From the NCBI GenBank assembly GCA_021787035.1, contig JAJYMM010000097.1, positions 1 to 63,714 on the forward strand: 63,714 nucleotides of DNA. Reading direction: 5' to 3'. Below are positions 12,201 through 32,385 of the stretch, piece by piece (position 1 is the first letter of the stretch; each line of letters begins with the position of its first letter). Origin of the DNA: Actinomycetes bacterium (GTDB lineage: Bacteria > Actinomycetota > Acidimicrobiia > Acidimicrobiales > Palsa-688). The position numbers were made by a program, and so were the translations under genes. A model generated the notes under the pieces. That model saw nothing but the letters and a program-made list of their open reading frames with translations. It had not been told where the DNA came from and did no database searches.

Positions 12201-13033
12201 TTGTCGCAGGCTTCGGGGAGGTCTGAAAAGACGGCCCGCATCTCGCCAGCAGTCTTCAGGTAGTGCTCCGAGCCCTCGAAGCGGAAGCGCTTGGGGTCGT
12301 CCATGTTGGAAGCGGTCTGGACGCACAGGAGGGCGTCGTGGGCGAGGTGGTCCTCCCTCGTCGTGTAGTGGCTGTCGTTGGTGGCGACGAGCGGTGCCCC
12401 GATGTGCCGGGCTATCTCGACGAGCTGCGGGTTGGTCTTCCTCTGCTGCTCCATTCCGTGGTCTTGGAGCTCGATGAAAAAGTTGTCGCGGCCGAATATG
12501 TCCTGGAGCCTTGCTGCGTGAGCGGTTGCCCGCTCGAAATCGCCGTGGAGGAGGGCTTGGGTGACCACCCCGCCGAGGCATCCCGAGCTCGCGATCACCC
12601 CCTCGTGGTAGCGCTCAAGCAGCTCCCAGTCACAGCGGGGCTTGTAGAAATAACCCGACAGGTACGCCTCGGAGGACAGCTTCATCAGGTTTTTGTAGCC
12701 CCGGTTGTCCTCCGCCAGAAGGGTCAGGTGGTAGTAGAGCTTCTCGCCCCCCTCGCCTTCGCCGCCGGTGTCGTCAAGACGCCCCCTGCGCGCCGGGCGC
12801 TCCAGGCGGCTCTCGCCCGCCATGTAGGCCTCGATCCCGATCACGGGCTTGATGCCCTCCGCCTGCGCCGCCTTGTAGAAGTCGAGGACCCCGTACATGT
12901 TGCCATGGTCGGTGATCGCGATGGCCGGCTGGCCGTCCCTCGCCGCTCGCTTCACCACCTCCCCAACCCTCGCCGCCCCGTCGAGCATCGAGAACTCCGT
13001 GTGGAGGTGCAGATGGGCGAACGAAGAACTCAT
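9248..13033 (-). CDS. dnaE: DNA polymerase III alpha subunit DnaE1
   Basis: PHP domain (HLHLHTEFSMLDGA), polymerase core and a C-terminal OB fold. It is 1261 aa and includes a repeat insertion. Confidence 0.95.
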   Translation of the reverse strand: MSSSFAHLHLHTEFSMLDGAARVGEVVKRAARDGQPAIAITDHGNMYGVLDFYKAAQAEGIKPVIGIEAYMAGESRLERPARRGRLDDTGGEGEGGEKLYYHLTLLAEDNRGYKNLMKLSSEAYLSGYFYKPRCDWELLERYHEGVIASSGCLGGVVTQALLHGDFERATAHAARLQDIFGRDNFFIELQDHGMEQQRKTNPQLVEIARHIGAPLVATNDSHYTTREDHLAHDALLCVQTASNMDDPKRFRFEGSEHYLKTAGEMRAVFSDLPEACDNTLWVAERAGVTIELGKPKLPAFPLPEGFSGSDEYLRHLTYEGAAERYGSPVPAKVAERLDYELGVIASMGFSDYFLVVWDLIRHARENGIRVGPGRGSAAGSCVAYCLHIVAIDPLSYDLIFERFLNPGRRQMPDIDMDFDERYRGEMIRYASERWGWDHVAQIVTFSTIKARAAVRDAARVLGYPYGMGDRVAKLMPPLVMGRDTPLWACFKEDPKYSDGYKVAFELRELYASDPDVKRVVDVAMGLEGLRRQDGIHAAAVVISSDPLTEHMPIQRKPEPGGRPEDAPIVTQYEMHGVEELGLLKMDFLGLRNLSVIERTLDLVEANTGDRPDLDALPFDDEATFELFRQGDTVGVFQMEGVNMRALLRAVGPTCIDDVAAVNALYRPGPMAANMHYDFADRKNGRKPVASLHPDMAEVLADTYGLMVYQESMMRVAQRIAGYSLAEADTLRKAAGKKVREIMAKEREKFVAGCEKTGYGTELGNAVFDLIEPFADYAFNKSHAFGYAFVCYWTAWLKANHPIEYMAALLTSVKDDKDKLGVYLAECRQMGVEVLVPDVNLSASDFTAVRASPASATCKGTEAGAPAVEGAGGSRSAGAIPFGLSAIRNVGEGLVERILAERSAGGPFTDFYDFCRRVDPMVLNKRTVESLVKAGAFDSLGHPRQGLCLVFEQVVDRTLARRKEADQGVLSLFGGADGADGGFDDARVPIPDMEFDKHTKLAFEKEMLGLYVSDHPLVGAEAALRRHADCTILDLRDEAGSREGADGGPGGQASVGQANVGQANVGQANVGQASLGQASLGQASVGQDRGFGGGGGWKGGPWVGGVVTGLTRKYTKRGELMATFVLEDLESSIEVFVFPRTMSDVGHLLGDDAVVFVKGRLDQRDEAPKLICSELKRPQLSLDGAEPLRVTVPAGAMDDARLSRLRELLGEHPGGSPVLLHVGEKVVRLPAEFNVEASPGLLAELRVLLGASCLWNREVPAG
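9775..9895. repeat. 15-bp tandem repeat x8 inside dnaE (CTGCCCAACACTGGC and variants)
   Basis: Direct reading. It encodes an in-frame (GQANV/GQASL)n insertion just before the DnaE C-terminal OB domain. Confidence 0.9.
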
Positions 13034-16939: not shown

Positions 16940-17677
16940 ATGGCAGGTGAGGGCCACCCAACCAATGACCCTGGCGTGACCAATGACCCTGGCGTGACCA
17001 ATGTCTTGCTTATCGACGACGATGCCCGCATCAGGGCATCGCTCGGGATGCTCCTGCGCAGGGACGGCTACGCCGTCTCAGAGGCCGCAAGCGGCGAGGA
17101 AGGGCTCCATGCCTTCGCTGAAGAGGGCCCCGACGTGGTCCTCGTGGACCTCCTCCTCCCAGACATGGACGGCTACGAGGTGACACGCGAGCTGCGTCGG
17201 GCAAGCAACGTCCCCGTCATCGTCATATCGGCAAGGACGGGCACCGACGACATCGTGCTCGGCCTCGAGGCGGGCGCCGACGACTACCTGACCAAGCCGG
17301 TGATGCCGCGCGAACTGCCCGCGCGCATCCGCGCGCTCATGCGCCGGGCCCAGCTGTCCGCCTCGGGTGGCACGAGCCTCACTCTCGGCGACCTCGAGAT
17401 CCTCCCCCACGCTGGCGTCGTCAAGAAGGCCGGCGTACCAGTGGCGCTCACCCGGACAGAGCTTCGCCTCCTCTGCGAGCTCGCATCCCAGCCCGGCTGG
17501 GTCCTTTCACGGGCACAGCTCCTGGAACGCGTCTGGGGTTACGACTACTTCGGCGACACCCGCCTTGTCGACGTCCACGTCGGGCGCCTCCGTACGAAGA
17601 TCGAGACCGACCCCACCAACCCCGCGCTCATCCTCACGATCAGAGGGCTCGGCTACAAGCTCGAACCGCCCCAATGA
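16940..17677 (+). CDS. mtrA: OmpR-family response regulator, MtrA ortholog
   Basis: REC domain plus a winged helix. The C-terminus LLERVWGYDYFGDTRLVDVHVGRLRTKIETDPTNPALILTIRGLGYK closely matches MtrA. An 18-bp repeat at the 5' end encodes TNDPGV twice. Confidence 0.85.
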   Translation: MAGEGHPTNDPGVTNDPGVTNVLLIDDDARIRASLGMLLRRDGYAVSEAASGEEGLHAFAEEGPDVVLVDLLLPDMDGYEVTRELRRASNVPVIVISARTGTDDIVLGLEAGADDYLTKPVMPRELPARIRALMRRAQLSASGGTSLTLGDLEILPHAGVVKKAGVPVALTRTELRLLCELASQPGWVLSRAQLLERVWGYDYFGDTRLVDVHVGRLRTKIETDPTNPALILTIRGLGYKLEPPQ

Positions 17678-19215
17678 CCCAACGACCGCGGTCCGGGCAG
17701 CGGGGCTGGCAGCGCTTCGGGCTGCGCGCTCGGGTCAGTGCCGCGTTCGCAGCGGGCGCGGCCCTCCTTTCCGCGGCCCTCGCCACGGTCACCTTCGCCG
17801 TCACCGACCACTACCTATTGGCCAGGCAGCTGCAAAACGCCGTGCACGAGACCTACGCCGACGCCCGTGTCGTCCACCGTGACCTGCTCCGGGGGGGCCC
17901 GAACATCGGCGGCGTCCTCTCGTCACTGACCGCTCCCGAGGGCACGGCCGCCTACTTGTACCAAGACCGCGAGTGGTACTCGGCGGCCATTGCGTTCGGC
18001 TACGGCCCGAGGACATCGCGCCCTGCCGGGGTCCCCCGAGCCCTCGTAGACCTCGTCAGGACCGGCCAGCCAGCGCGCCAGGAGGCCATCGTCGGGAACG
18101 AACCAGTAGTGACGGTCGGCGTTCCCCTGGACTCTGTCGGCGCGGATTTCTTCGAGGTCTACTCGCTTGCCCAGCTGTCGCACAACCTTCAGTTGCTCGC
18201 CTGGGTACTCTTCGGGTGCGCAGCAGCGACCTCCGCCGGCGGCCTCGTCGTCGGCCGGTGGGCAAGCGCCCGGTTGGTGCGACCCCTCCAAGAGATCGCC
18301 GACGTCGCTGCGGCGATCGCTGGAGGGGAGCTCGGTACCCGCCTGCCCTCGGGCGGCGGCCCCGAGATCGCAGTGCTGTCCGCGTCGTTCAACGAGATGG
18401 TCGGCGCTCTGGAGGAAAGGATCAAGCGCGACGCGCGCTTCGCGTCCGACGTGAGCCACGAGCTGCGCTCCCCGCTCACGACCATCCAGGCGGGGATAGA
18501 GGTCCTCCGCTCAGCCGAGGCCAGCCTCCCCCCCGATGCCCGAAGCGCCCTCGAGCTCCTCTCGGCAGAAGTGAGCCGCTTTTCGGCGATGGTGCAAGAC
18601 CTGCTCGAGATGTCCCGGTTCGACGCCGGCTCCCCCGGCTTGGACTTCGAGGAGCTTCGCGTCGACGAGCTCGTCGCCAGCACGGTCTCCGCCTACACAG
18701 CCAGCGCCGTCCCCGTGATCGTGGAACCCGGCGCCACGGACATGTGGGCCCTCGCCGACCGGCGCCGGCTCCAGCGCGTCCTGGTCAACCTCTTGGACAA
18801 CGCCACGGCCTACGGCGGCGGCGCCGTCGCCGTCCGCGTCGAGCGCCGTAGCGACCCGGCCCCGAGCGGAGAAGCAGCCGTCGTCGTGGAAGACGCAGGC
18901 CCGGGGGTGCCTGCGCGCGAGCGCTCGGCCATCTTCGAGCGCTTTTACCGGGGGGCCGCCGCGGGGCGCCGAGGCGCGAGCACCGGCACCGGCCTCGGCC
19001 TCGCTCTCGTAGCCGAGCACGTGAAGGCCCACGGCGGCAGGATCGAAGTCGCCGACCGCCCTGGGGGCGGGGCCCGGTTCGTGGTCCACTTACCGCTCAG
19101 CGCCGTTCCCCAGCCACCACCGCCTGAGCACGGCCAGCGGGCCGCGGAGGACACGCCACCCGAGCCGCCAAACGCACACGCCGGCGCCCCGGCAGGCGTG
19201 AGCGGGCAGGGATGA
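17674..19215 (+). CDS. mtrB: sensor histidine kinase MtrB-like
   Basis: HAMP, HisKA (SHELRSPLTTI) and HATPase_c domains. It overlaps mtrA by 4 bp. Confidence 0.85.
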   Translation: MTQRPRSGQRGWQRFGLRARVSAAFAAGAALLSAALATVTFAVTDHYLLARQLQNAVHETYADARVVHRDLLRGGPNIGGVLSSLTAPEGTAAYLYQDREWYSAAIAFGYGPRTSRPAGVPRALVDLVRTGQPARQEAIVGNEPVVTVGVPLDSVGADFFEVYSLAQLSHNLQLLAWVLFGCAAATSAGGLVVGRWASARLVRPLQEIADVAAAIAGGELGTRLPSGGGPEIAVLSASFNEMVGALEERIKRDARFASDVSHELRSPLTTIQAGIEVLRSAEASLPPDARSALELLSAEVSRFSAMVQDLLEMSRFDAGSPGLDFEELRVDELVASTVSAYTASAVPVIVEPGATDMWALADRRRLQRVLVNLLDNATAYGGGAVAVRVERRSDPAPSGEAAVVVEDAGPGVPARERSAIFERFYRGAAAGRRGASTGTGLGLALVAEHVKAHGGRIEVADRPGGGARFVVHLPLSAVPQPPPPEHGQRAAEDTPPEPPNAHAGAPAGVSGQG

Positions 19216-19243
19216 ACGACCCGCCAGGCAAGGGTGGCCCTCA

Positions 19244-19849
19244 GTGGAGAGTGGGCTTGTGAACCGCTGGCGTCGTCTCCTCGCAACAATTCTCACGGCC
19301 GCGGTCGCTGCCGGGTCCCTCGCAGGCTGCGGGGTCGGCGGACAGGGCCCACCTCGCGCGCTCGGGCGTGATTCGGTGCCCTACGGGCTGCTCGCCAGAC
19401 GGGCCAACAGGAGGGGCACCGTGCCGCGCTTCGGGTCGGTCAGGGTCACGTTGTGGCTGGAGGGCGCCAACCAGCAGCTCTCTCCCGTCAGCGCGTATGT
19501 CGCCTGGCCGGCGACGATAGGCGGCCTCCTGAACGCCCTCGCCCAAGGGCCCACCGAACGCCAGTCCGAACAAGGCCTCGTGAGCCCGGCCTCTTCGTTC
19601 GGGCCCCTCTCGAGCAGGTCCATGCGACGAGGGGTCGTACCGGTCGAGCTCCCCGCCTCCTTCGAAAACCTGAGTGGCGGGGACCAGCTCATTGCGGCGG
19701 CGCAGATCGTCTATACCGTGACGGGCTTCCCGGGGGTGCATGGCGTGACGTTTTTCCTGGCAGGCCGGCGAGCCCACGTCCCAAACGCCGTCGGCAAGCT
19801 CCTTGCTGGCCCCCTTACGCGAAAAGACTATTCATCGCTCGCCGGCTGA
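19244..19849 (+). CDS. GerMN-domain lipoprotein (LpqB N-terminal-like, short)
   Basis: Lipobox LAGC. The GerMN pattern is present (ALE.LL.GP...E...G..S..P...VDLS..F...QIVYTVTGFPGV..V.F...G). It is 201 aa, where canonical LpqB is ~580 aa. Confidence 0.65.
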   Translation: MESGLVNRWRRLLATILTAAVAAGSLAGCGVGGQGPPRALGRDSVPYGLLARRANRRGTVPRFGSVRVTLWLEGANQQLSPVSAYVAWPATIGGLLNALAQGPTERQSEQGLVSPASSFGPLSSRSMRRGVVPVELPASFENLSGGDQLIAAAQIVYTVTGFPGVHGVTFFLAGRRAHVPNAVGKLLAGPLTRKDYSSLAG

Positions 19850-20060
19850 GCCGGGGGCATCACAAAGCTGTTACAAAACTGTTGCGCGCCCCTCACAGAT
19901 TTGTGGCCGCCGCTGCTTAGGTTTCCCCATAGACGCCGGTAACGCCCCTTTTGGGCCGCGTAGTCAAATTGTCCCTCCAACTTCCTGGGGCGTAGCCAGC
20001 GCCGCAAGGCAAAACGGCTCGCAGGAGACAGAGCCCGCAGGAGACAAGGAGAGGACGGCA

Positions 20061-20777
20061 ATGTTTGTGATTGGCGCAGGGCTGCCGCGGACAGCCACCC
20101 TTACCCAAAAAATCGCACTCGAACAGCTCGGTTTCGGTCCCTGCTACCACATGGTGGAGGTGCTGGGCGACCTGAGCCGCGCCGAGCAATGGCGGGAGGC
20201 ACTCGAGGGTGACAGCAACTGGGATAAGGTCCTCCCGGGGTACAAGGCGACAGTCGACTGGCCCGGTGCCTTCTTCTACCAGGAGCTCATGGAGGCGTTC
20301 CCCGAGGCCAAGGTGCTCCTGTCCGTCAGGGACGGAGAGGCCTGGGAGCGCAGCATGGGCGAGACGATCTGGGGGATCTTCTACGGCGACACGGTGGCCC
20401 GCCACCTTTCGGACGCGAGGGCCCTGGTCGACGAGGGCTGGGCCTCCTACATGTCCCTCATGAAGGAAATGTGGGTGAAGAGCGGGCTTATGACAAGTGA
20501 GGTAGACGAGCCCGGCACCGGCTCGATGGCGCGTGCCATGGAGCGTTACAACGAAGAGGTGAAGGCCAGCGTGCCGCCCGAGCGCTTGCTTGTCTGGAAC
20601 CCGGCCGATGGGTGGGGGCCCCTCTGCGAGTTCCTCGAAGTCCCCGTACCGGTAACGCCCCTGCCTCACGTCAACGATTCGAAGTCCTTCGGGGTCATGC
20701 TTTCAGACGCAGCGCTCCGGGCCTTGAACACCTGGCGCGACAGCCAGGATTTCAGCACACTCGCCGCCCACCCGTGA
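20061..20777 (+). CDS. PAPS-dependent sulfotransferase (Sulfotransfer_4-like)
   Basis: 5'-PSB loop GLPRTAT and 3'-PB R-x7-S (RDGEAWERS). A strong AAGGAGAGG SD precedes the ATG at 20061. It is 238 aa and predicted cytoplasmic. Confidence 0.7.
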   Translation: MFVIGAGLPRTATLTQKIALEQLGFGPCYHMVEVLGDLSRAEQWREALEGDSNWDKVLPGYKATVDWPGAFFYQELMEAFPEAKVLLSVRDGEAWERSMGETIWGIFYGDTVARHLSDARALVDEGWASYMSLMKEMWVKSGLMTSEVDEPGTGSMARAMERYNEEVKASVPPERLLVWNPADGWGPLCEFLEVPVPVTPLPHVNDSKSFGVMLSDAALRALNTWRDSQDFSTLAAHP

Positions 20778-20881
20778 GCCTCGTAGGGGCAGCTCGGCCC
20801 CCAAGAAGCAAGGACAACCCCAACGCGAGCCCAGAGGCCGCTCCGGTCCCCCTTGGCGCGGGGGAGGGTAGTGGCAGCCAG

Positions 20882-23842
20882 GTCACTCGTCATGGCTGGT
20901 TGCTCGCGGTCTGTTGCATCGCGCAGTTCATGGTCATCTTGGACCTTTCGATCGTCAACGTTGCCCTGCCCTCCATCCAGTCGGCACTAGGTTTCTCGAG
21001 CACCCAGCTTCAGTGGGTCGTCGATGCTTACGCCATCGTCTTCGCCGGCTTTTTGATGCTGGGGGCTCGGGCAGCCGACCGATTCGGGCAACGACGGACC
21101 TTCGTCGTCTCGCTCGCTCTCTTCTCGTTCACGTCTTTGGCTGGCGGCCTCTCGCCAACTAGCGAGATGTTGATCGCGGCGCGCGCTTTCCAGGGCCTCT
21201 CGGGCGCACTGATGGCCGCCACCTCCCTCGCCATCATCACGGCCTCCTTCCCCGCCGGTCCCGCCCGCCACCGTGCGATCGGGTTGTGGGGTGCGATGAA
21301 CGGGGCGGGGGGCGCCGCTGGCACTCTCCTCGGAGGCATATTGACCCAAGAGCTCTCTTGGCGCTGGGTCTTGCTGATCAACCCGCCGATCGGCATCGCG
21401 GCGGCCTTGGTCGCCTACCGCGTGGTGGCCGAGCGAAAAAAGCAACGGGACCTTCCCCGTTTCGACCTGGCCGGGGCCCTCACAATGACGCTCGGCACGC
21501 TCGTGGTTGTGTACGGGATCGTCGAAACCGGCGTCGTTGGTTGGTCGTCACCCGGCGCCGTCGTCCCGATCGTGCTCGGCGTCGTGCTGCTCTCAATTTT
21601 CTGCCTCGTGGAAGCGCGTTTCGCAGTCGCTCCCCTGGTGCCTTTCCGTGAGCTGACAGGCCCGATGAAGCTGGCCAATGTCATCGTCTTGTTGTTCAGC
21701 GCGTGCTTGTTCCCAATGTGGTACGTCGGCTCGCTCTACATGCAACAAGTCCTCGGCTTGTCGCCCTTGGCCACTGGCTTCGCCTTCCTCCCCCTGACCG
21801 TCGTGATCATGGTGGTCGCCTCGCGCGCGGGGAAGCTCGTGGGCCGCTATGGCGTGCGGGCGGTGATGGGGAGCGGCCTGGTCCTGCTGGCTGCGGGCAT
21901 GTTGCTATTTGCCCGCATCGGCTCGACCGGTAGCGCCTGGGGCTACATCGTGCTCCCCGGCCTGCTCGTCGCCGCCGGCATCGCCCTGTCCGTCGTCCCC
22001 TCCACGATCTTCGCCACCCAGGTCGCCGGCCCTGCGCAAGCCGGGCTCGCGTCGGGCCTCGTAAACACGTCCCGCCAAGCCGGCGGAGGCCTCGGGCTTG
22101 CCATCTTGATCACTCTCGCCAGCCGGTCCACGAGCGCCGCCATCGGCCGCGGGACCTCAGCGCCCGTAGCACTCACTGACGGTTTCCGCCTCGCCTACCT
22201 AATCGGGGCCGGCCTAGTCGTTACGGCCGCGGCAGTCACCTTTGCCCTGGTCCACCCCCTCGCCTCGGCAGGAGGCACGGGCGGCCCGCGCCGGCACCGA
22301 CCCCTCGCGATGGCTTCCAACCCACAGTGGCGGTTCGCGTCCGTTATAGCCGCCGTGCTCATCGTCTTCGGAGCCCTCGACTTCAGCCTGGCGGGAGCGA
22401 AGGCAAGCCCGATCGGCGCTTACACGACCAAGGGTTCCTATAGCTTTGTCTCGGCCCCGGGCCTCCATCCCCCGAAGATCTCCGCCGGCGCGCCCACAAA
22501 GCTGGCAAGCCTTGCGCCCGGCTACATCATGCTCGCCAACTTTTACGACCTCACTACAAAGCCGATGCAGGGCCAGAGCGGCCCCCTCATCCTCGACAAC
22601 AACCTCCAGCCGGTGTGGTTCCGGCCGGTACCGACCGACGTTGTAGCTACCAACCTGGAGACCCAGACCTTCCAAGGCAAGCCAGCGCTCTCATGGTGGC
22701 AGGGCGTCGTGAGCAATACGGGCCAGACCGAGAGCGGCGAAGACGTCATCGTGAACGACCACTACCAGACGGTCGCCACCCTGAAGGGCCAAGGCGGTTG
22801 GGTCATAACCATGCACGAGCTCGTCATACAAGGCGACCACGCCTGGGTGACGGCCGAAAAGGATGTCCCGATGAACCTGTCGAAGTACGGCGGGACTTCC
22901 GACGGCGTGCTCGACGACGCCGCCATCCAGGAGTACAGCCTCTCCACAGGCAAGCTGCTCTACACCTGGGACGCCCTTCACCACGTCCCCCTCACCGCCT
23001 CCCATGCCCAGGCACCCGCCAACGGCTTTCCCTGGGACGCCTACCACATAAACTCCCTCGAGCTCCTGGGCAATGCCACGATGCTGGTGTCCATGCGAAA
23101 TACCTGGGCCGCCTATTTGGTGGACCAAAAGACCGGCGTCATCGACTGGGAGCTCGGCGGCAAAAACTCTAGTTTCCAAATCCCTGGCGCTGCCTCGTTC
23201 GAATGGCAACACGACGTCAGGCTGCGCTCTAACGGCGTCGTCACGATGTTTAACGACAACTGCTGCCAGATCACCGGCGCGGGCACGTACCTGGCCCCGG
23301 CGGGGCCGTCTGCCGGCCTAGAGCTGCAGTTGAACATGAAGTCACACACGGTGTCGATGCTCGCCCGCTACCAACAGCTCGACAAGCTCTCCGCCGCGTA
23401 CATGGGAGACATGGAGCCCTTGCCCAACGGCAATGTCTTCGTCGGGTGGGGTTCTCAGCCGTATTTCTCCGAGTACACGAAGTCCGGCAAGCTCTTGCTC
23501 GAAGGCACCCTACCCGGTCCAGACCTCTCTTACCGCGCTTTGCTCAAACCATGGGTAGGACTTCCCCTGTACCCACCGAGCGGTGCGGCCCGCTCCGTCA
23601 CAGGCGCTACAGATGTCTATGCGAGCTGGAACGGTGCCACCCAATTGGCCTCCTGGCGACTCTTGGCAGGGAAAGGCGCTGCGCCCCTCCATGAGGTGTC
23701 GAGCGCCCCCAAGCGCGGGTTCGAAACCGAGCTCAAACTGAAGGGCACCTACAACGTGTTCAAGCTCCAGGCGCTCGATTCCGCAGGGCACGTGATCGCA
23801 ACATCGAAGAGCTTCGGCGCCACGGCGAGTGTAAAGCCTTAG
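20882..23842 (+). CDS. DHA2-type MFS transporter (14 TMS) fused in-frame to an arylsulfotransferase(ASST)-like beta-propeller
   Basis: Continuous ORF 20612..23842. It contains an MFS domain (~20882-22300), then an internal Sec-signal-like segment (MASNPQWRFASVIAAVLIVFGALDFSLAGA from the ATG at 22310), then a ~480-aa domain. That domain shares the motifs GPLILD..PVWF, YQGKP.L.WWQG, FHINS, WQHD, GWG.QPYFSE and ASWNGAT with the two downstream paralogs. Confidence 0.65.
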   Translation, partial: VTRHGWLLAVCCIAQFMVILDLSIVNVALPSIQSALGFSSTQLQWVVDAYAIVFAGFLMLGARAADRFGQRRTFVVSLALFSFTSLAGGLSPTSEMLIAARAFQGLSGALMAATSLAIITASFPAGPARHRAIGLWGAMNGAGGAAGTLLGGILTQELSWRWVLLINPPIGIAAALVAYRVVAERKKQRDLPRFDLAGALTMTLGTLVVVYGIVETGVVGWSSPGAVVPIVLGVVLLSIFCLVEARFAVAPLVPFRELTGPMKLANVIVLLFSACLFPMWYVGSLYMQQVLGLSPLATGFAFLPLTVVIMVVASRAGKLVGRYGVRAVMGSGLVLLAAGMLLFARIGSTGSAWGYIVLPGLLVAAGIALSVVPSTIFATQVAGPAQAGLASGLVNTSRQAGGGLGLAILITLASRSTSAAIGRGTSAPVALTDGFRLAYLIGAGLVVTAAAVTFALVHPLASAGGTGGPRRHRPLAMASNPQWRFASVIAAVLIVFGALDFSLAGAKASPIGAYTTKGSYSFVSAPGLHPPKISAGAPTKLASLAPGYIMLANFYDLTTKPMQGQSGPLILDNNLQPVWFRPVPTDVVATNLETQTFQGKPALSWWQGVVSNTGQTESGEDVIVNDHYQTVATLKGQGGWVITMHELVIQGDHAWVTAEKDVPMNLSKYGGTSDGVLDDAAIQEYSLSTGKLLYTWDALHHVPLTASHAQAPANGFPWDAYHINSLELLGNATMLVSMRNTWAAYLVDQKTGVIDWELGGKNSSFQIPGAASFEWQHDVRLRSNGVVTMFNDNCCQITGAGTYLAPAGPSAGLELQLNMKSHTVSMLARYQQLDKLSAAYMGDMEPLPNGNVFVGWGSQPYFSEYTKSGKLLLEGTLPGPDLSYRALLKPWVGLPLYPPSGAARSVTGATDVYASWNGATQLASWRLLAGKGAAPLHEVSSAPKRGFETELKLKGTYNVFKLQALDSAGHVIATSKSFGATASVKP

Positions 23843-23878
23843 CGAGCTGGCAAGTAGTCCGGTACGTGGGGGGCGCCC

Positions 23879-24026
23879 GCACCTCCTGCGCCAATCCCCC
23901 TGCGCAATCCCCCTGCGCAATCCTCCGGCGCCCCCAACGGCGGCCCCCTTTAGGCTCACCCCAGGTATCTTGATGGGCCCAGCTCAAATCACCGCCAGCT
24001 CAGAGCACCGCCAGCTCAGAGCACCG
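23879..24026. repeat. two short tandem arrays (about 13-14 bp x3 at 23884-23925; 16 bp x2.5 at 23984-24026)
   Basis: Direct reading of CTGCGCAATCCCCC-type units and CACCGCCAGCTCAGAG units. Confidence 0.8.
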
Positions 24027-24182
24027 CTAGTAGCCCGGTGCCCTCGTCGTAGTCGTGTGACCGCTGCCGCTACCCGAACCACCACAAGCGGCCGTCGCAG
24101 ACGCAAGGGTCGCTAGGGCCAACCCGGCCACTAGCCAGCGCCCCAGCCTCCGCAAAAGGCCACGTACCATAAAGCTCGTCAT
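24027..24182 (-). CDS. small Gly/Ser/Thr-rich lipoprotein (51 aa), not in the ORF track
   Basis: The ATG at 24182 is preceded by GAGGAG. The peptide is MTSFMVRGLLRRLGRWLVAGLALATLASATAACGGSGSGSGHTTTTRAPGY. Signal peptide plus lipobox-like AAC. Confidence 0.35.
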   Translation of the reverse strand: MTSFMVRGLLRRLGRWLVAGLALATLASATAACGGSGSGSGHTTTTRAPGY

Positions 24183-24275
24183 GATCACTCCTCGAAAACC
24201 GCCATGGCTATGACCTAAAATCTACACCGCAGACCCCAACTTGCCCAGGCAGGTGCGCCCCGGTCGAGCCCCGCC

Positions 24276-25940
24276 TCAAGTCCCAGCTAAAGGGCGGCTC
24301 TTTAGCGCTTCTGACCGTCGCAGCACCCTGCCGTCCGGCCCGATTGCTGCCACCGCAAACCACGGCCCCGTGGCATTTACCGCGATGGCCGTCTCGAACC
24401 CCGCCCAGTCTCCCCCGCCAACGGGCTGGAGCGAAGTGGGCTCCTTGCCAGCTAGGACCACCCAACGCCGCACCTCGGTCGCACCGTTCCAGCTAGCGAA
24501 AACTTGCTTGCCGTTAGCCGGGTTGTCCAGCGCAACGGCAACGGGAGGCTCCCTAGGCGTGGCGTGCCAATCCGAAGTGAACGCCCGGTACGAGTGGTAG
24601 CCAAAGGGCATCTGCCCCTCGAGCAACAGCGCTCCTCCCGGTGCGAACTCGGAGAAGTACGGCTGGTTCCCCCAGCCTACGAACACTCGGCCGTCGGCCA
24701 GCAGCTGCACGTTGCCCTGGTTGCCGCTAAGGAAGCGAGCCGGGTTTAGGTAAGCCTTACGCAGGCTTACATGCATTGCCTTGGTGTCCACACCTAGTAT
24801 GAGCCCGCGCGACTGGCGCTCCTCCGGCGGCCAGGCGCCGTCGTCGAAGACGGTGATCACGTCTGGGCCGTGAGGCCGCGCATCGTGCTGCCAGTAGAAG
24901 TGCGCGCCTCGGCCGATACTGAAATCGGATTTTTTGCCACCGAGCCGCCAAACGACCTTGCCCGTGCTACGGTCCACTTTGTACAAGGCCCATGTGCCCA
25001 GGGACGAGATCAGCAAGTCCCCGTCGGGCATCTCGGCAATAGAGTTGATGTGGAAGTAGTCGTACTCGTCGCCTGGCGGGCCGATCTTCGTGTAGCTCTC
25101 TTCGATCCCGACATGCTTCAAGCTGTCCCAATCAAAGAGCACCTTGCCAGTCGCGATGTCGATCTCCTGCGCGTGCCCGACGATGAGCTTTCCCTTGGGT
25201 TTGCCTCCAACTGAAGAAAGATCGGCCTCCACCGCCTGGTACGCGGTGACCAGCGCGGTACCTGCCGACGTGAGCTCGAGCTCGTGAAGGTCGGCCTTCA
25301 GGCCGTCACCCGCTTGGATCTGCTGGATTCCTTGGTAACTGCTGCCCACCATCTCGCCCACACCCACGCCGTAGTCATAAACCACCTGGCCCTGCCACCA
25401 GGTGAGCACCGGCTTACCTTGATAGGACTGGACTTGCAGGTCGAAGGGTTGGGGGCCCATTGGCTGGAACCAAACGGTCCGGCCGCTCCGGTCAACGAGC
25501 ATGAGCCCATGCTGGCCGTCTGTGCCCGAGAGATATGTCCGGGGAGAAAGGACGATGTAGCTGGGCGACGAGGGAGACGCGCCATGGGCCGTCACGCTCA
25601 CCTTGGGAGGGCGCAAGTCGGGGCGCGTGATGAAGGACTCGACCTGCCCGCGCATGACGAGATCCGGGCTGATCTCCGAAGGGCCGTTTTGTGGCCTAGT
25701 TGCGCGGCCCTTAGCCGGGCTCCTGGGCCATTCGTAGCCCACAACGCCACCGACGCCCGCCAATATCAGGCCTCCTGCCGCACCTGCTGCACCGAGAAGC
25801 ACCTTGCGGCGAGAAAATCTCGGCGCGCCGCCAGCTCTCGGTCCGCGATCGGCGCCCGAGTCGCCCCACTCGTCGCCGCCTGCACCAGCATCTGTCCGTG
25901 GGCTCCCGACAAGATCCCTGTACTTGCCTTCTGTTTCCAC
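24276..25940 (-). CDS. TAT-secreted arylsulfotransferase(ASST)-like beta-propeller protein, paralog 2
   Basis: TAT-like SRRKVLLGAAGAAG. Shares the family motifs YQGKPVLTWWQG, DYFHINS, WQHDA, GWGNQPYFSEF and ASWNGATEV. Confidence 0.7.
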   Translation of the reverse strand: METEGKYRDLVGSPRTDAGAGGDEWGDSGADRGPRAGGAPRFSRRKVLLGAAGAAGGLILAGVGGVVGYEWPRSPAKGRATRPQNGPSEISPDLVMRGQVESFITRPDLRPPKVSVTAHGASPSSPSYIVLSPRTYLSGTDGQHGLMLVDRSGRTVWFQPMGPQPFDLQVQSYQGKPVLTWWQGQVVYDYGVGVGEMVGSSYQGIQQIQAGDGLKADLHELELTSAGTALVTAYQAVEADLSSVGGKPKGKLIVGHAQEIDIATGKVLFDWDSLKHVGIEESYTKIGPPGDEYDYFHINSIAEMPDGDLLISSLGTWALYKVDRSTGKVVWRLGGKKSDFSIGRGAHFYWQHDARPHGPDVITVFDDGAWPPEERQSRGLILGVDTKAMHVSLRKAYLNPARFLSGNQGNVQLLADGRVFVGWGNQPYFSEFAPGGALLLEGQMPFGYHSYRAFTSDWHATPREPPVAVALDNPANGKQVFASWNGATEVRRWVVLAGKEPTSLQPVGGGDWAGFETAIAVNATGPWFAVAAIGPDGRVLRRSEALKSRPLAGT

Positions 25941-26031: not shown

Positions 26032-27618
26032 GTGAGCGTCTCAGGTAACGGCCGCTCCGCCCTTTCCCGCCGAGATTTGTTCCGGCTCGCCGGCGGTGCC
26101 GCTGGAGCAGCAGGTCTGTTTGCGGCAGCGCGTTTTGCGCCCCCCATCCTCGGCGGCGACGAGCGACACCTGCCATCGCTCCCGAGCCTCGACCACGCCC
26201 CGACGCTCGAGAGCAAGGTAAATATCTCGATCAGCACCACTCCGGCAGGGCAGATCTTGCGATTCCGGAGCCGTCCCGACCTCCAACTGGCGTTGCCGCA
26301 GTTGTCCACCGAGCTTCCTGGACAGGACCCCGGCGCCATATTGACCGACACCCACGCGGGGCCAGGTGGCCAGGGGCCGCTCATCCTCGACAGTTCGGGA
26401 CGCCAACCCGTCTGGTTCAACCAGATCTCCTTAGACGCCGACCCCTCGAAGCGTGCGTTCAACCTCCGCCTTGGGCGCTACAAGGGACAGCCGGTGCTCA
26501 GCTGGTTCGAGGGGGCGGTCGTAAACGAGCACGGCGAGGGCCACTACGTCATTACAGACTCGTCCTATTCCACGGTGAAGACTGTCCAAGCCGGAAACGG
26601 TTATGTGGGCGACCTCCACGAGTTTTTCCTGACGCCGCAAGGCACTGCGTACTTCACGTGCTTCGGCTTGGGCCACGCAGACTTGCGCCCCTACGGAGGC
26701 AGCGCGAACGGCGATTTCTACTACGGGGTAGCGCAAGAGGTCGAGGTGGACACCGGCAAGGTCCTTTTCCAGTGGAGGAGCGACCAGCACGTCAGCTTCG
26801 ACGACTCGTACTGCACGCCAAAACAATACGGCACGGAACCCTGGGACTATTTCCACATAAATGCTATTTCGCAAGACGGCAATGGTGACCTCCTTATTTG
26901 TTCTCGCAATACCTCGACGATATACAAGGTCAGCCGTTCCACGGGTGAGATAATTTACCGGATCGGTGGCAAGCGGAGCGACTTTTCTTTTGCCCCGGGC
27001 GCTCAATTTGCGTGGCAGCACGACGCAACGGCGCAGCCCGACGGGACGATAACGGTCTTCGACAACGGCGCCGGCGTCGAGGTTACCCAACCCGAGTCCC
27101 GAGCCCTCGTGCTCAACCTAAATATGTCGTCTAAGACCGTCGAGCTGTTCCACCAGTACCCACACCCCGGCGGGGCGATCTTGGCCAATGCCCTCGGCAG
27201 CGTCCAATTGCTGGAGGGTGGCCACACGTTCATCGGTTGGGGCAACCGCGGATGGTTCAGCGAAGTCGGGCCGACAGGACAGACCCTCCTAAACGGGCGC
27301 CTTGCAGGCGATACCACGCTGTCGTACCGCGCGTTCCGTTCGCCGTGGACAGCCAAGCCGCCCGAACCACCGGACATCGCCGTAGAGGCCGCGAGCCAGA
27401 CCACGACCGTGTACGCGAGCTGGAACGGCGCCACAGAGGTGGACCGCTGGGCGGTACTCGGCGGCGCGGCCAAAAACAGCCTTTCGGTCCTCGGGGTTGC
27501 ACCCAAGGCAGGGTTCGAGACACAGATAACCGTGCCAGGACGGCCGGCTCACGTCGCCATAGCGGCCCTGGACGCCGCCAGCAACGAGCTCGGCCGCTCC
27601 GGGACCCTGAAGACCTAG
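26032..27618 (+). CDS. TAT-secreted arylsulfotransferase(ASST)-like beta-propeller protein, paralog 3
   Basis: Twin-arginine signal SRRDLFRLAGGAAGAAG and the same motif set (GPLILD..PVWF, YKGQPVLSWFEG, DYFHINAIS, WQHDA, GWGNRGWFSE, ASWNGATEV). Confidence 0.7.
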   Translation: MSVSGNGRSALSRRDLFRLAGGAAGAAGLFAAARFAPPILGGDERHLPSLPSLDHAPTLESKVNISISTTPAGQILRFRSRPDLQLALPQLSTELPGQDPGAILTDTHAGPGGQGPLILDSSGRQPVWFNQISLDADPSKRAFNLRLGRYKGQPVLSWFEGAVVNEHGEGHYVITDSSYSTVKTVQAGNGYVGDLHEFFLTPQGTAYFTCFGLGHADLRPYGGSANGDFYYGVAQEVEVDTGKVLFQWRSDQHVSFDDSYCTPKQYGTEPWDYFHINAISQDGNGDLLICSRNTSTIYKVSRSTGEIIYRIGGKRSDFSFAPGAQFAWQHDATAQPDGTITVFDNGAGVEVTQPESRALVLNLNMSSKTVELFHQYPHPGGAILANALGSVQLLEGGHTFIGWGNRGWFSEVGPTGQTLLNGRLAGDTTLSYRAFRSPWTAKPPEPPDIAVEAASQTTTVYASWNGATEVDRWAVLGGAAKNSLSVLGVAPKAGFETQITVPGRPAHVAIAALDAASNELGRSGTLKT

Positions 27619-28973: not shown

Positions 28974-29941
28974 GCCCCGAGACGTTCCCCGGGCACGGGC
29001 CGCGTGCCTCGCAGCCAATCGGGCACCGCCAGCGGTGCCTTTCCTTCGGGCTGCACGACCAACAGCTGCAGCGTACCGGCACCCGTCCCCACCAGGTCAC
29101 CCGCGAGCTCGCCAGGCTCAAGGGCAATTGCAGGAGCTCCAGCGCCCGGGGTTGAGCCGGCGCGTATTGAGCCGGCGCGTATTGAGCCGGCGGGCACGGG
29201 GGTTTCTGCTTGGCAGCGGCCGCCATCCGCGCCCGAGTCATGGTCCACCAGCCGGGCCCGATGGACGATCAGGCGCCGGCCCCGCCAAGTGGTCCATGCC
29301 CTGCCAACCCTCACGGCGCGGAGGCAAACCTCCGCCGGCAGCTCAAAGTCCAGCCGGAGCTCCGAAGGATCGACCTTGTTGGCATAACTAGGCTCGCCAA
29401 CTTGGGCCACGGGCTCTGGAAAACCTTGGCTGAGGGCGCCAAGCAGCATCTCGGTCCCCAGGTCACCGAGGCGACCACGCAGCTCCGTCACCGTTTCCTC
29501 GGGCCCTATGCTTACGGCCCGACAGGCAAAAATAGGGCCGGTGTCCAAGCCCTCTTCCAGCTTCATCAAGCAAACACCGGTCTCTTTGTCGCCGGCCAGC
29601 ACAGCCCTCTCCACCGGTGCCGCACCCCGCCAGCGCGGCAGGAGGGAGAAGTGGACATTGACCATCGGCACCTTCTCGAGCACGTCCGGCTTGATGATGC
29701 GCCCGTAGGCAACGACCACCCCAAGCTCGGCGCCCGAACCCACCACCGCGGCCGCATCGTAGGAGACGGGAAGGCCGAGCTCGGCCGCCACGACCTTCAC
29801 TGGGCTCGGCCCAAGCTCCCCTCCTCGGCCCCGGCGTGCGTCCCGCCTGGTCACCACCACGCGAACATCGTGGCCCGCGCCAACTATCGACCGAAGTGTC
29901 GCGGCCGCGACCGTAGGGGTGCCTAGGAAGGCGAGGTGCAA
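28970..29941 (-). CDS. fmt: methionyl-tRNA formyltransferase
   Basis: Motifs FLGTP...HFSLLPRWRGAAP...GVCLMKLEEGLDTGPI. Confidence 0.9.
   Translation of the reverse strand: MHLAFLGTPTVAAATLRSIVGAGHDVRVVVTRRDARRGRGGELGPSPVKVVAAELGLPVSYDAAAVVGSGAELGVVVAYGRIIKPDVLEKVPMVNVHFSLLPRWRGAAPVERAVLAGDKETGVCLMKLEEGLDTGPIFACRAVSIGPEETVTELRGRLGDLGTEMLLGALSQGFPEPVAQVGEPSYANKVDPSELRLDFELPAEVCLRAVRVGRAWTTWRGRRLIVHRARLVDHDSGADGGRCQAETPVPAGSIRAGSIRAGSTPGAGAPAIALEPGELAGDLVGTGAGTLQLLVVQPEGKAPLAVPDWLRGTRPVPGERLGA
29152..29195. repeat. 15-bp tandem repeat x~3 (TTGAGCCGGCGCGTA) inside the fmt C-terminal region
   Basis: Direct reading. It encodes the in-frame sequence AGSIRAGSIRAGS. Confidence 0.85.
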
Positions 29942-29995
29942 TTGCCCAAAAGGTGCTGGCGAACTAATGACAAGCTGACTCCAAAGGATCCGTGG

Positions 29996-30553
29996 CTAGG
30001 CCCTGGGCTCCCGGCCGGCAGGTGCCACCTCGCGGGCCGAGTGGCCCTCAGCGCGCCGGCGCAGCTCACGCATGGCCTGCTTGCGCTGCTCCGCGTCCAG
30101 GCGCTCGAGCAACAGGTGGCCGTCCAGGTGGTCGACCTCGTGCTGGTAAAGCTTTGCCTCCATGTCCTCTCCCTCGTAGGAGACCTCCCGGCCGTCGATG
30201 TCGTAACCCCTGACACGGACGCGCTTGGCGCGGGTGATGTGGAACCAAAGGCCGGGCACCGACAGGCACCCTTCCTCGTGCTCCCATTCGCCCTCGGCCT
30301 CTTCGAGGACCGGGTTGATGACAGTCCGCGGTCCGCTGTTGCCGATTTCGTAGACGAATATCCGCTTGGACACCCCAATCTGCGGTGCAGCCAGGCCCAC
30401 CCCATTCGCCTCCCTCATCACGGCGTGCATCTCGTCGACCAAGCGCGCGACGCGCTCGTCGATATCGGTCACCTCCTCGGCACGCCGCCTGAGCACGGGG
30501 TCACCAAAGGTCCGGATCCTGTAGGGGGCCACGCGCAACATCATACGGGGCAA
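29996..30553 (-). CDS. def: peptide deformylase
   Basis: Motifs GVGLAAPQIG...EGCLSVPG...HEVDHLDG. Confidence 0.9.
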   Translation of the reverse strand: MPRMMLRVAPYRIRTFGDPVLRRRAEEVTDIDERVARLVDEMHAVMREANGVGLAAPQIGVSKRIFVYEIGNSGPRTVINPVLEEAEGEWEHEEGCLSVPGLWFHITRAKRVRVRGYDIDGREVSYEGEDMEAKLYQHEVDHLDGHLLLERLDAEQRKQAMRELRRRAEGHSAREVAPAGREPRA

Positions 30554-30598
30554 GGGTCCCGCGAGGCCCGCTTGAGCACTACGCTCCGGTCCTGGGTC

Positions 30599-31459
30599 CT
30601 ACGCGGCCGCGGCCGGCTGGACTACGAAACTCCCTTCCATGCCTTCTTGGGCATGGCCGGGGACGGGACAGAAGTAGCTGTAGGTGCCCGCCGACGACGC
30701 TGTGAAGCTGAGCATCCCGGCGTGCATCCCGGCAGAGGTCTTCTCACCCAGGAACCAAAGGGCAGCCCCGGGGAAGGCCGGCCGCGCAGTCATCATCGGC
30801 ATCCAAGAACTGCCGGCACCCCGGGCCGACAGGACTAAGCCGTGGGCCATGTCGTCGTCGGCGTTCACCAGCTCGATAGAAACATGCGCTCCTTCCGCCA
30901 CGACGACCGTCGGGTCCGTCAACCGGGCGATCTTGAAGTTCTCGGCCGGCATCGACGGGCTCGCCAGCACGGCGAAAGAGACGTCCTGGCCCGAGAAGGT
31001 TACGGTGTTGGTGGAGCGGTCCACAGTTGCGCCCGAGGGTACCTCCGCGCCCAACTGGGCCGCTTGGGCGGGGCTCACGCGAGGTCCGGGGGCGCCGGCG
31101 AAGAGCCTGCCCATGACCTTGCCCATGTTGTCGCTGCCTTGCGTGAACGAACCAGGAAGAGAACCGCCCATCATCCAGCCCGGCGCGCCACTGCCGCCCA
31201 TCATCCAGGAGTAGCCGCTGGCGCCCATCATCCAGGAGTAGCCGCCCCCCATCATCCCCCCGTACCCTGCGCTCTGCTGGGGGGCGTACCGCTTGGCGAC
31301 GGCGAGGTAATAGGCATAACTGGCCTTGGCGCTCGCCGGTGTCAACGTCTGGGCGGGGGCGCCCGGGCCGCCCGAGAGGCCGATGCCGAGGCCAGCCCCG
31401 AGGCCGCCGGCAGCCAATACGAGAGCTGTAGCGAGGACCGTCAGTTGCTTGCGGTTCAT
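30599..31459 (-). CDS. secreted cupredoxin (type-1 copper, azurin-like C-x4-H-x4-M site) with a Met-rich MMGG region
   Basis: Signal peptide from MNRKQLTVLATALVLAAGG, with an SD before the ATG at 31459. Four (G/W)MMGG motifs are present. The C-terminal YFCPVPGHAQEGMEG is a copper site. ORF 30599..31600. Confidence 0.7.
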   Translation of the reverse strand: MNRKQLTVLATALVLAAGGLGAGLGIGLSGGPGAPAQTLTPASAKASYAYYLAVAKRYAPQQSAGYGGMMGGGYSWMMGASGYSWMMGGSGAPGWMMGGSLPGSFTQGSDNMGKVMGRLFAGAPGPRVSPAQAAQLGAEVPSGATVDRSTNTVTFSGQDVSFAVLASPSMPAENFKIARLTDPTVVVAEGAHVSIELVNADDDMAHGLVLSARGAGSSWMPMMTARPAFPGAALWFLGEKTSAGMHAGMLSFTASSAGTYSYFCPVPGHAQEGMEGSFVVQPAAAA

Positions 31460-31708
31460 GGTGAATGTCCCCTTTCTTTGTTCAGGTTCAGGCGGGCCGT
31501 TCCCTGGCGAGCGCCACGGCAGAGCCGGCCGGCGCGGCCTGCGGCTTGCTTTGCACAGTTCCCACCTTGCCGCTCCCCTGCAGGTGGGGGGCAGGGCCAT
31601 CGGGCCCTTGGGGCCGTGACCTATGGCCCTACCCCCTAGGGGTACCCTGACGCCATCCTGAACCTGAAGCGCCCGGGTTTCACTGGGCGCACATGGAGGT
31701 GGTCAGAC

Positions 31709-31987
31709 ATGATGTTCTGGTACGGGAGCGGCTGGGGCTGGTGGCAGGGCGTGCTCAGCGTCGTGTTCATGCTCGCTTTTTGGGGCCTGGTCGCCTGGGG
31801 GATCTACGCCCTCGCGAGGAGCTCCCGAGGGCCAGCCCCGCGGGCCAGCACCTATGACGCCCTCATGATTTTGGACGAGCGCCTAGCACGGGGAGAGATC
31901 GACCAGGAGCAGTACCGGGCCGCACGCGAGCTGATCAGGACAGGTGGCGGGGCCGGCCCGACGGCACCGACGGGAGGCGCGTGGTGA
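31709..31987 (+). CDS. SHOCT-domain membrane protein
   Basis: Trp-rich TM segments followed by ILDERLARGEIDQEQYRAARELI, a SHOCT motif. Confidence 0.6.
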   Translation: MMFWYGSGWGWWQGVLSVVFMLAFWGLVAWGIYALARSSRGPAPRASTYDALMILDERLARGEIDQEQYRAARELIRTGGGAGPTAPTGGAW

Positions 31988-32364
31988 CGCCGGCCAGCCT
32001 GCCCGAGACCGGGCTTGGCGAGAGCGCTTGCGCTCGCGAAGCCCCGCCGGCAACGGGGAGCCCCGGGCGGGCCCTGCACCCTGTCAGGGGCTACACCTCG
32101 GACAAAGGCGACTACTTGAGCCGGCTCAAAAAGATCGAGGGCCAGGTACGCGGCCTGCAACGGATGATCGAGGCCGACAAGTGGTGCCCAGACATCGTGA
32201 CCCAGGTCGCCTCGGCCACCCGCGCCCTCCAGGAGGTGGCGGTCGTGCTCCTGTCCGAGCACCTCCGCCACTGCGTGCTCGGGGCCGCCCGCTCCGAAGA
32301 TGGTAAGCCGGAGGTGCTCCTGGACGAGGTCGCGGGCACGATCCGCCAGGTGGTCCGGCTCTAG
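31981..32364 (+). CDS. csoR: CsoR/RcnR-family metal-sensing repressor
   Basis: Motifs RLKKIEGQVRGLQRMIEADKWCPDI...LLSEHLRHC, a Cys/His/Cys metal site. The true start is probably downstream of 31981. Confidence 0.75.
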   Translation: MVTPASLPETGLGESACAREAPPATGSPGRALHPVRGYTSDKGDYLSRLKKIEGQVRGLQRMIEADKWCPDIVTQVASATRALQEVAVVLLSEHLRHCVLGAARSEDGKPEVLLDEVAGTIRQVVRL

Positions 32365-32385
32365 GGCCTGCTCAGGCTGGATCCC

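Follow-up and report, generated by a model that had tools for sequence, protein, structure and literature searches.

A conserved gene of soil actinobacteria joins a DHA2-type exporter to a Cpz4-like arylsulfotransferase predicted to lie outside the cell

One gene for an exporter and an arylsulfotransferase

We describe a fused gene in a 63.7-kb stretch of Actinomycetes DNA whose source is given with it (contig JAJYMM010000097.1; "the window" below means this whole stretch). The gene lies on the plus strand at 20774..23842 and encodes, in this order, a major facilitator superfamily (MFS) exporter, a linker, a fifteenth transmembrane (TM) segment, here called TM15, and a β-propeller resembling arylsulfate sulfotransferases (ASSTs). 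Its product of 1022 aa is identical to a public protein, P0001, whose numbering we use unless stated otherwise. It belongs to a single open reading frame (ORF) on the plus strand, 20612..23842, which is free of stop codons across the boundary between the MFS and ASST parts, so that the transporter reads straight into the enzyme, as the original prediction for this locus had proposed. That prediction placed the start at 20882, in the same frame. The start is most likely the GTG at 20774 instead, because gene callers place the first codon of P0001 there and homologues share the N-terminus MSL...; the same GTG also shares bases, within GTGA, with the stop codon (TGA) that ends the sulfotransferase gene upstream.

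Both halves are recognized by Pfam, with MFS_1 at 2e-50 (aa 12-405 of the protein begun at 20882) and Arylsulfotran_2 at 1e-39 (aa 595-874). An AlphaFold2 model of the whole protein has a mean pLDDT of 85.9 and a pTM of 0.80. A hydropathy scan and this model agree on the layout, which comprises 14 MFS helices between aa 33 and 492 and one extra helix at aa 517-540, the number of segments first predicted. The model places a disordered linker at aa 493-516 and an all-β domain at about aa 546-1019, with its strands at 584-1010. For a two-domain protein, a pTM of 0.80 hints at a defined packing of the propeller on the transporter. A scan of positions 19700-24400 for promoters and terminators returned nothing exceeding shuffled expectation. 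Public annotation of the fusion proteins reads only "MFS transporter" or "EmrB/QacA drug resistance transporter", labels that hide the enzyme half.

We assessed conservation in three sets: the 120 best matches from a search of 5.8 billion proteins; the best 80 of 596 relatives obtained by scanning one genome per species; and the best 150 of 7413 representatives returned when the ASST part by itself was searched exhaustively with HMMER. The 120 homologues are about 950-1100 aa long, share 61-77% identity with the query and cover 94-100% of it (99% in most), and every one of them carries PF07690 and PF14269 within one protein. Throughout the best 80 genomes the match runs in frame over approximately residues 2-980, bar a few loci cut by contig ends; these genomes are all metagenome-assembled genomes (MAGs) from soil, peat, bog and fen and belong to Acidimicrobiales or Solirubrobacterales/Thermoleophilia. 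The 90%-identity cluster of the window protein has 18 members, and for at least nine of them independent assemblies (NCBI, ENA, JGI and Logan) give an identical product of 1022 aa; this agreement takes the place of the read-level check suggested in the original prediction. The best 150 family representatives are nearly all free-standing proteins of 480-640 aa. MFS sequence is found among them only in P0121, P0127 (truncated) and P0122 (truncated at its N-terminus, with the last MFS helices kept), which form essentially one 50%-identity cluster of the same clade. By these sequence comparisons the fusion is confirmed as genuine, conserved and under selection, and it appears to form one clade that extends over two actinobacterial classes rather than to have arisen by repeated accident.

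Two simpler accounts had been allowed for in the original prediction, and neither survives. An assembly or sequencing artefact, with a stop lost by sequencing error or frameshift, is ruled out by the independent assemblies together with the conservation of the fusion in homologues. Two separate genes, the second translated from an ATG at 22310, would suit the presence of that codon and of the signal-like peptide after it. However, a Met occurs anywhere in the linker in only 9 of the 120 homologues, the ATG has no Shine-Dalgarno sequence at a usable distance (the only AGGAGG lies ~36 nt upstream), and the homologues are all fused. Split orthologues were likewise rejected, as no MFS gene adjoins the closest free-standing ASST relatives, P0126 and P0123. 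No pertinent paper turned up when the literature was searched for a fusion of MFS and arylsulfotransferase.

The two halves and the segment between them

The transporter half (20870..22249, plus strand; aa 33-492) is a DHA2-type MFS domain of 14 TM helices, a classification that draws on Pfam, the AlphaFold2 helices and structure matches. PF07690 (MFS_1) scores 172 bits against a cutoff of 33.4. The NCBIfam model of the EmrB subfamily, TIGR00711, falls narrowly short of its cutoff (210.8 against 230.2 bits) and is matched over profile positions 3-413 of 485. Between TM2 and TM3 stands motif A, GARAADRFGQRR. The nearest solved structures in a Foldseek search are the mycobacterial EfpA (8UFD, 8X6X), QacA (7Y58) and EmrB (8ZAL), with TMt values of 0.79-0.87, and the Rv1410 homologue MHAS2168 is also among the closest. 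All four are 14-TM (DHA2) or related exporters, several of which handle lipids or amphiphiles, and from this kinship we infer that the MFS half exports its substrate. The fusion shares with EfpA, QacA and EmrB the fold, the helix count and motif A, and comes close to the EmrB-subfamily profile; it differs from them in its 15th helix and extracellular enzyme domain, which they lack, and in scoring below the TIGR00711 cutoff.

The enzyme half (22409..23839, plus strand; PF14269 at 1e-39) is predicted to be an extracytoplasmic ASST domain of the Cpz4-like type, which is independent of PAPS (3'-phosphoadenosine 5'-phosphosulfate); it consists of a β-propeller followed by a C-terminal β-sandwich. 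PF14269 scores 137 bits against a cutoff of 27, and PF05935 (Arylsulfotrans) 29.9 bits against 24.2 (E 3.8e-07). The closest structures are 9KF4 and 9KF6, released 2025-11-05 and identified through their PDB description in Foldseek as Cpz4, the Streptomyces caprazamycin sulfotransferase. These match over the whole length in sequence (E 1.5e-82) and superpose with TMt of 0.93 (9KF6) and 0.91 (9KF4), at 35-36% identity and a root-mean-square deviation of 2.3-2.4 Å, the query domain having a pLDDT mostly above 90.

ASSTs that work outside the cytoplasm have been known for decades, an example being EcAST, the AssT of uropathogenic Escherichia coli (3ELQ). A profile that we built from 52 diverse members of the family detects 3ELQ with an E-value of 4e-6. 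The catalytic set of EcAST comprises the nucleophile His436 together with His252, His356, Asn358 and Arg374 (PMC13426309). When the profile is compared with 3ELQ, EcAST His356-x-Asn358 aligns with H-x-N-S, Arg374 with S-x-R-N and His436 with W-Q-H-D, while the column of the sulfo-histidine nucleophile is marked by the H436N mutant chain 4P04; His252 aligns with L-H-E, through a weak segment of the alignment. The corresponding codons fall within 22814..23212 on the plus strand: His at 22814 (His252), His at 23045 (His356), Asn at 23051 (Asn358), Arg at 23096 (Arg374) and His at 23210 (His436). None of the five varies among 31 fusions, and each is found in at least 49 of the 52 diverse relatives; judged by these residues, the fused domain looks catalytically competent for ping-pong sulfuryl transfer.

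The fused enzyme has in common with EcAST an extracytoplasmic site, predicted for the fusion, a β-propeller and a ping-pong catalytic set. The two are distant in sequence, however, and EcAST is a soluble, Sec-exported periplasmic protein without a transporter, whose N-terminal β-sandwich is not aligned with the family profile. EcAST also has a disulfide that depends on DsbL/DsbI, whereas the fusion has instead a vicinal Cys-Cys pair at 23261..23266 (plus strand; motif NDNCCQITG). These are the sole cysteines of the ASST part; they are invariant in the fusions, occur in 16 of the 52 diverse relatives and are absent in Cpz4. The pair fits an oxidising extracytoplasmic site, which is only suggestive and proves nothing. 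Its two residues could be joined as a vicinal disulfide, close to the active site.

Transporter and enzyme are joined by a cytoplasmic linker at 22250..22321 (plus strand; aa 493-516) that is basic, rich in Pro, Gly and Ala and disordered (pLDDT <50), and that holds the non-conserved ATG at 22310. The peptide RRHRPLAMASNPQWRFASVIAAVLIVFGALDFSLAGAKA, quoted in the original prediction as beginning at this ATG, is present exactly. The ASST part counted from there (22310-23842) has 510 aa and is, as also claimed, similar in size to the free-standing paralogues of the window (554 and 528 aa). Across the 120 fusions the linker is 10-55 aa long (median 13) with a mean net charge of +2.9; Arg or Lys occurs within its last eight residues in all 120, and a pair of Arg in 76. 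TM15 follows at 22322..22393 (plus strand; aa 517-540) as a segment resembling a signal peptide, behind which stands an A-G-A box (AGA|KA). Its 19-residue Kyte-Doolittle score has a median of 2.44 over the 120 homologues.

TM15 has kept the build of a signal peptide. A basic n-region leads into a hydrophobic core of ~15 residues, which closes with a polar D/T and is followed by an A-G-S box. In the alignment of the 120 fusions the segment leads into a conserved motif, ...A-G-S-H-G-A-P-I-G-A-Y-T-T-x-G-x-Y-S-F-V-S-A-P-x-L-H-P-P-K. From the last Arg or Lys to the conserved Pro the spacing hardly varies, with 25 residues in 78 of the 120 and 23-29 in the whole set, and an AxA-like box, with small residues at −3 and −1, stands at the aligned site in 99. 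The closest free-standing relatives, P0123, P0125 and P0126 (~50% identity), carry a Sec signal peptide that ends in AxA directly before GAYTT.GA.SFVSAP. A hydrophobic N-terminal signal precedes the domain in 95 of 122 free-standing representatives, and the ASST family is, by this sequence evidence, extracytoplasmic by default. Since the extra segment sits where the closest free-standing relatives carry their Sec signal, we identify it, by position and composition, as a retained signal peptide, with its n-, h- and c-regions kept, and here the original prediction holds.

The same prediction had placed the propeller outside the membrane, and this too is well supported by the sequence-based topology. 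Fourteen MFS helices leave both termini of the MFS part in the cytoplasm, so the 15th segment must run from inside to outside. Lys and Arg are distributed accordingly, with a mean over the 120 homologues of 22.8 in the predicted cytoplasmic loops and 4.8 outside, the basic linker between TM14 and TM15 contributing 3.3. A single polypeptide with its ASST threaded outside, beside a DHA2-type exporter, is strongly supported by these results.

Polytopic membrane proteins can also be inserted jointly by Sec and the twin-arginine translocation (Tat) pathway, as is the actinobacterial Rieske protein of the Sco2149 type. We rejected dual Sec/Tat insertion of TM15: the segment is too hydrophobic (Kyte-Doolittle median as above), the S/T-R-R-x-F-L-K pattern is absent and the nearest relatives are of the Sec type. 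The Arg pair of the window protein lies 14 residues upstream of the hydrophobic core of TM15. The Sco2149-type class has a twin-arginine motif ahead of a weakly hydrophobic last TM helix and carries a cofactor in its folded C-terminal domain, and we know of no cofactor in ASSTs.

Neighbouring genes and related loci

Directly upstream of the fused gene, at 20061..20777 on the plus strand, lies a gene for a PAPS-dependent type of sulfotransferase of the family Sulfotransfer_4 (ST4; PF17784 at 3e-61). Its sequence matches in the PDB are SgdX2 (8Y9P, 3e-41), a "Sulfotransferase family protein" (9KF1/9KF2, 2e-39) and the schistosome PAPS-dependent sulfotransferases 5TIZ and 4MUA (1e-24 to 1e-30). 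Further upstream, at 16940..19849 on the plus strand, Pfam identifies a response regulator, a histidine kinase and a Germane-domain protein in an order like that of MtrA, MtrB and LpqB. The window thus reads response regulator, histidine kinase, Germane protein, ST4, fusion and then two free-standing ASSTs on opposite strands. The MtrA/MtrB/LpqB-like trio also precedes the ST4-fusion pair in two further loci of Acidimicrobiales, L001 (4077-7002) and L004 (5910-8900), and the short contig of L008 keeps the order in part, as Germane-ST4-fusion. Its presence hints at a link to cell-envelope homeostasis.

The first free-standing ASST-like paralogue (24276..25940, minus strand; 554 aa; PF14269 at 8e-52) is 36% identical to the fused domain and begins with a Tat-like signal, FSRRKVLLGAAG. 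It has Leu at the position equivalent to Arg374 (HHNLH versus HHNRH), and its sulfuryl binding may be altered or lost. The second (26032..27618, plus strand; 528 aa; PF14269 at 2e-43) has a classic Tat signal, SRRDLFRLAGGAAG, and the complete catalytic pentad.

To place this arrangement among its relatives we took a census by tblastn of 10 kb on each side of the fusion in 80 genome loci (L003-L082). Free-standing ASST paralogues, up to five of them, lie near the fusion in 68 of the 80 loci, a sulfatase with a Tat signal in 28, ST4 in 21 and a type III polyketide synthase (PKS) in 12 (13 of 83 when L002 is counted; examples are L002, L020 and L042). Of the 82 loci retrieved (L001-L082), 11 contain a gene for a kinase of adenosine 5'-phosphosulfate (APS). 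ST4 stands directly upstream of the fusion in all loci of Acidimicrobiales, and no sulfatase occurs in them. Over 83 loci (the window, L001, L002 and L003-L082), ST4 (23 loci) and the Tat-signal sulfatase (29 loci) are never found together near the fusion, while the type III PKS co-occurs with either, and the two cluster types follow the tree of the fusion protein. This exclusivity could mean either that the source of the sulfuryl group differs by clade or that the missing gene lies elsewhere in those genomes.

The fullest cluster is that of L042, a complete Solirubrobacterales chromosome, where an APS kinase, a divergently oriented type III PKS, ST4, an ASST, the fusion and another ASST follow one another with overlapping gene ends. 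The PKS of this locus is closest to the alpha-pyrone synthases PKS18 and PKS11; the two ASSTs flanking the fusion have a signal anchor and a lipobox.

Several features of the wider family were seen in passing. The closest free-standing relatives, in L083 and L084, adjoin a sugar aminotransferase of the DegT/DnrJ/EryC1 type and a DedA/VTT protein, with BacA present in L083; this is an envelope-glycan context, with no MFS neighbour. Relatives of about 600 aa (P0140, P0141, P0171; L042 7713-9659 and 12904-14736) have, after the signal, an extra N-terminal domain of ~130 aa. This domain of the free-standing paralogues carries the motif ...GSRSG.H.G.L..YS...GASF.P...F..GE.V.V... and gives no Pfam match. 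P0124 (1006 aa) and P0260 (861 aa) each contain two tandem ASST-like propellers in one protein.

A proposed transmembrane sulfuryl route and its alternatives

To our knowledge PAPS does not occur outside the cell, so the supply of sulfuryl groups to an extracytoplasmic ASST is an open question. A precedent for an answer is the two-step sulfation of caprazamycin, which was reportedly described by Tang et al. in 2013. According to two published accounts, triketide pyrones are made by the type III PKS Cpz6 and sulfated by the PAPS-dependent Cpz8, and the products serve the PAPS-independent Cpz4 as donors (PMC4257720, PMC6731281). The present system resembles this pathway in that its fused ASST is a clear homologue of Cpz4 and that, in the window, a sulfotransferase of the PAPS type lies directly upstream; some related loci also encode a type III PKS of the alpha-pyrone type and an APS kinase, L042 having the gene set of the caprazamycin route, although the window has no PKS. 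It differs in its setting. The Cpz4 chain begins at the propeller, without a signal peptide, and acts inside an antibiotic pathway, whereas the fused ASST is joined to a 14-TM exporter, is predicted to face outward and has up to five secreted or anchored paralogues beside it, with no nucleoside-antibiotic genes.

We propose that the fused gene encodes an ASST tethered to an exporter and facing outward, which would use an exported sulfated carrier as its donor. ST4, translationally coupled upstream, would use PAPS in the cytoplasm to sulfate a small carrier, either phenolic or a pyrone. Where related loci encode them, the adjacent alpha-pyrone-type type III PKS would make the carrier and the adjacent APS kinase would supply the PAPS. 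The MFS half would pump the sulfated carrier out, and the tethered ASST would catch the sulfuryl group on its His (codon at 23210) where the carrier exits and hand it to an extracellular or cell-surface acceptor. The ASST paralogues, whether exported by Tat, lipoproteins or membrane-anchored, may draw on this donor too, to serve other acceptors. There is a rationale for the tether, since a monoderm has no periplasm to hold a small exported donor, and such channelling would fit the gene neighbourhood. The route would be the Cpz6, Cpz8 and Cpz4 logic of caprazamycin moved across the membrane. As a whole this is the explanation we favour on balance, with restrained confidence.

More tentatively, and with rather less confidence, we suggest that soil Acidimicrobiales and Solirubrobacterales run a dedicated extracytoplasmic sulfation system in which the carrier would be a transmembrane "sulfate shuttle" replacing PAPS and the acceptors would belong to the envelope or the environment. 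Weak hints of an acceptor in the cell envelope come from the MtrAB/LpqB-like genes upstream and from the DegT/BacA/DedA context of the free-standing relatives.

Several observations weigh against the proposed route. No type III PKS, APS kinase or sulfatase is encoded anywhere in the 63.7-kb window. With ST4 within 10 kb in only 21 of the 80 loci, the step that would make the donor in the cytoplasm is not universally encoded beside the fusion, and a large clade of Solirubrobacteraceae has a secreted sulfatase instead of ST4. The structure 9KF1 matched by ST4 is plausibly Cpz8, an identification that is unverified and drawn from the PDB numbering, which is of the same deposition series as that of Cpz4. 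The direction of export is inferred from family membership only, and substrate, donor and acceptor are all putative. Finally, the conserved AxA-like box after TM15 means that the halves may be separated after export.

This last point introduces the most serious rival. TM15 may be permanent, as a tether demands, or it may be an internal Sec signal that signal peptidase I cuts after the A-G-S/A-G-A box, in which case the fusion would be a device for biogenesis and co-expression. A soluble or wall-associated ASST would then be released and a 14(+1)-TM exporter left behind, with a coupling that is stoichiometric and local but non-covalent. The segment has all the hallmarks of a cleavable Gram-positive signal peptide, including small −3/−1 residues in 99 of 120 homologues and the span of 23-29 residues, and the box occupies the position at which the closest free-standing relatives have their AxA box. 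Yet TM15 is highly hydrophobic (median 2.44), AlphaFold2 models it as one continuous helix of 24 residues within a chain whose overall pTM is 0.80, and small residues are common in proteomes rich in Ala and Gly, so that the box may be due to chance or to structure. If the enzyme were released, moreover, there would be no obvious reason for the fusion to have been kept across two classes. We hold cleavage to be unlikely, while taking it seriously.

Staphylococcus aureus LtaS offers a parallel: it has five TM helices and an extracellular domain of the sulfatase fold, and is cut by the signal peptidase SpsB. The likeness extends to a last TM helix, an AxA-like box and a large extracytoplasmic enzyme, and for both proteins the key question is which form is active, the full-length or the cleaved one. 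LtaS differs in that its membrane part is not a transporter of the MFS class and its enzyme has another fold.

A second rival keeps the tether and changes the cargo. The MFS half would export the acceptor, whether a lipid, a glycolipid or a secondary metabolite, and the ASST would sulfate it as it emerges, the donor leaving by another route. The closest structures to the transporter, the lipid-handling EfpA and the Rv1410 homologue MHAS2168, suit this account, as do the envelope-glycan contexts of the closest free-standing ASST relatives (DegT aminotransferase, BacA, DedA) and the MtrAB/LpqB-like genes upstream. It needs, however, a second and unidentified exporter for the donor, while the fused one is the only transporter consistently present in the cluster, and the translational coupling of ST4 to the exporter is more simply understood if the product of ST4 is the cargo. 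On this evidence we judge export of the acceptor improbable.

Sulfur scavenging by trans-sulfation seems to us more improbable still. Surface ASSTs would here move sulfuryl groups from sulfate esters of soil or peat to an exported, unsulfated phenol carrier derived from the PKS, and the secreted sulfatase would free the sulfate to be taken up. A large clade does carry three to five free ASSTs and a Tat-signal sulfatase with no ST4 nearby, five of its loci also having a type III PKS, and the source genomes are all MAGs from soil, peat, bog or fen. Against this, a sulfatase alone would suffice for scavenging, the window and all loci of Acidimicrobiales have ST4 and no sulfatase, and the APS kinase beside the L042 cluster points to synthesis of PAPS. 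Two separate genes, or a read-through artefact, are hardly credible in view of the identical assemblies and the fused homologues and genomes described above.

If the outward-facing, exporter-tethered ASST does use an exported sulfated carrier, it would bear on a long-standing gap, as the natural donors, acceptors and roles of extracytoplasmic ASSTs are still largely unknown (PMC13426309). The families of both halves were already known, as was the logic of two-step sulfation from one antibiotic pathway. What is new is that a Cpz4-type ASST is joined to an exporter, covalently or at any rate co-translationally, by way of a retained signal peptide, that such an enzyme has an extracytoplasmic placement, and that it is conserved, along with several surface ASSTs, in abundant, uncultured actinobacteria of the soil. 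The link between enzyme and exporter is physical, and that to a PAPS-type sulfotransferase is genetic, in the window and in about a quarter of related loci; some related loci also link the fusion to a pyrone-type PKS and an APS kinase, which provides a concrete and testable supply route. The idea of a sulfated pyrone as reagent would thereby extend from a single antibiotic pathway to uncultured actinobacteria of soil and peat. If correct, this would be the first physiological route of donor supply for an extracytoplasmic ASST, would bear on how the cell envelope or soil organic matter becomes sulfated, and could yield ASSTs with natural donors regenerable from PAPS for biocatalysis.

Two minor observations concern the rest of the window. 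Four ORFs, at 29936-30838 (+), 30842-31639 (+), 31852-33039 (−) and 34809-36074 (+), have no Pfam match at E<=0.001 and are likely to be spurious given the high GC content. At 9248-13033 (−) lies a gene for the alpha subunit of a DnaE-type DNA polymerase III, whose product has a weak, sub-cutoff match to the pentapeptide-repeat family PF01469 (E 8e-5) just before its OB fold.

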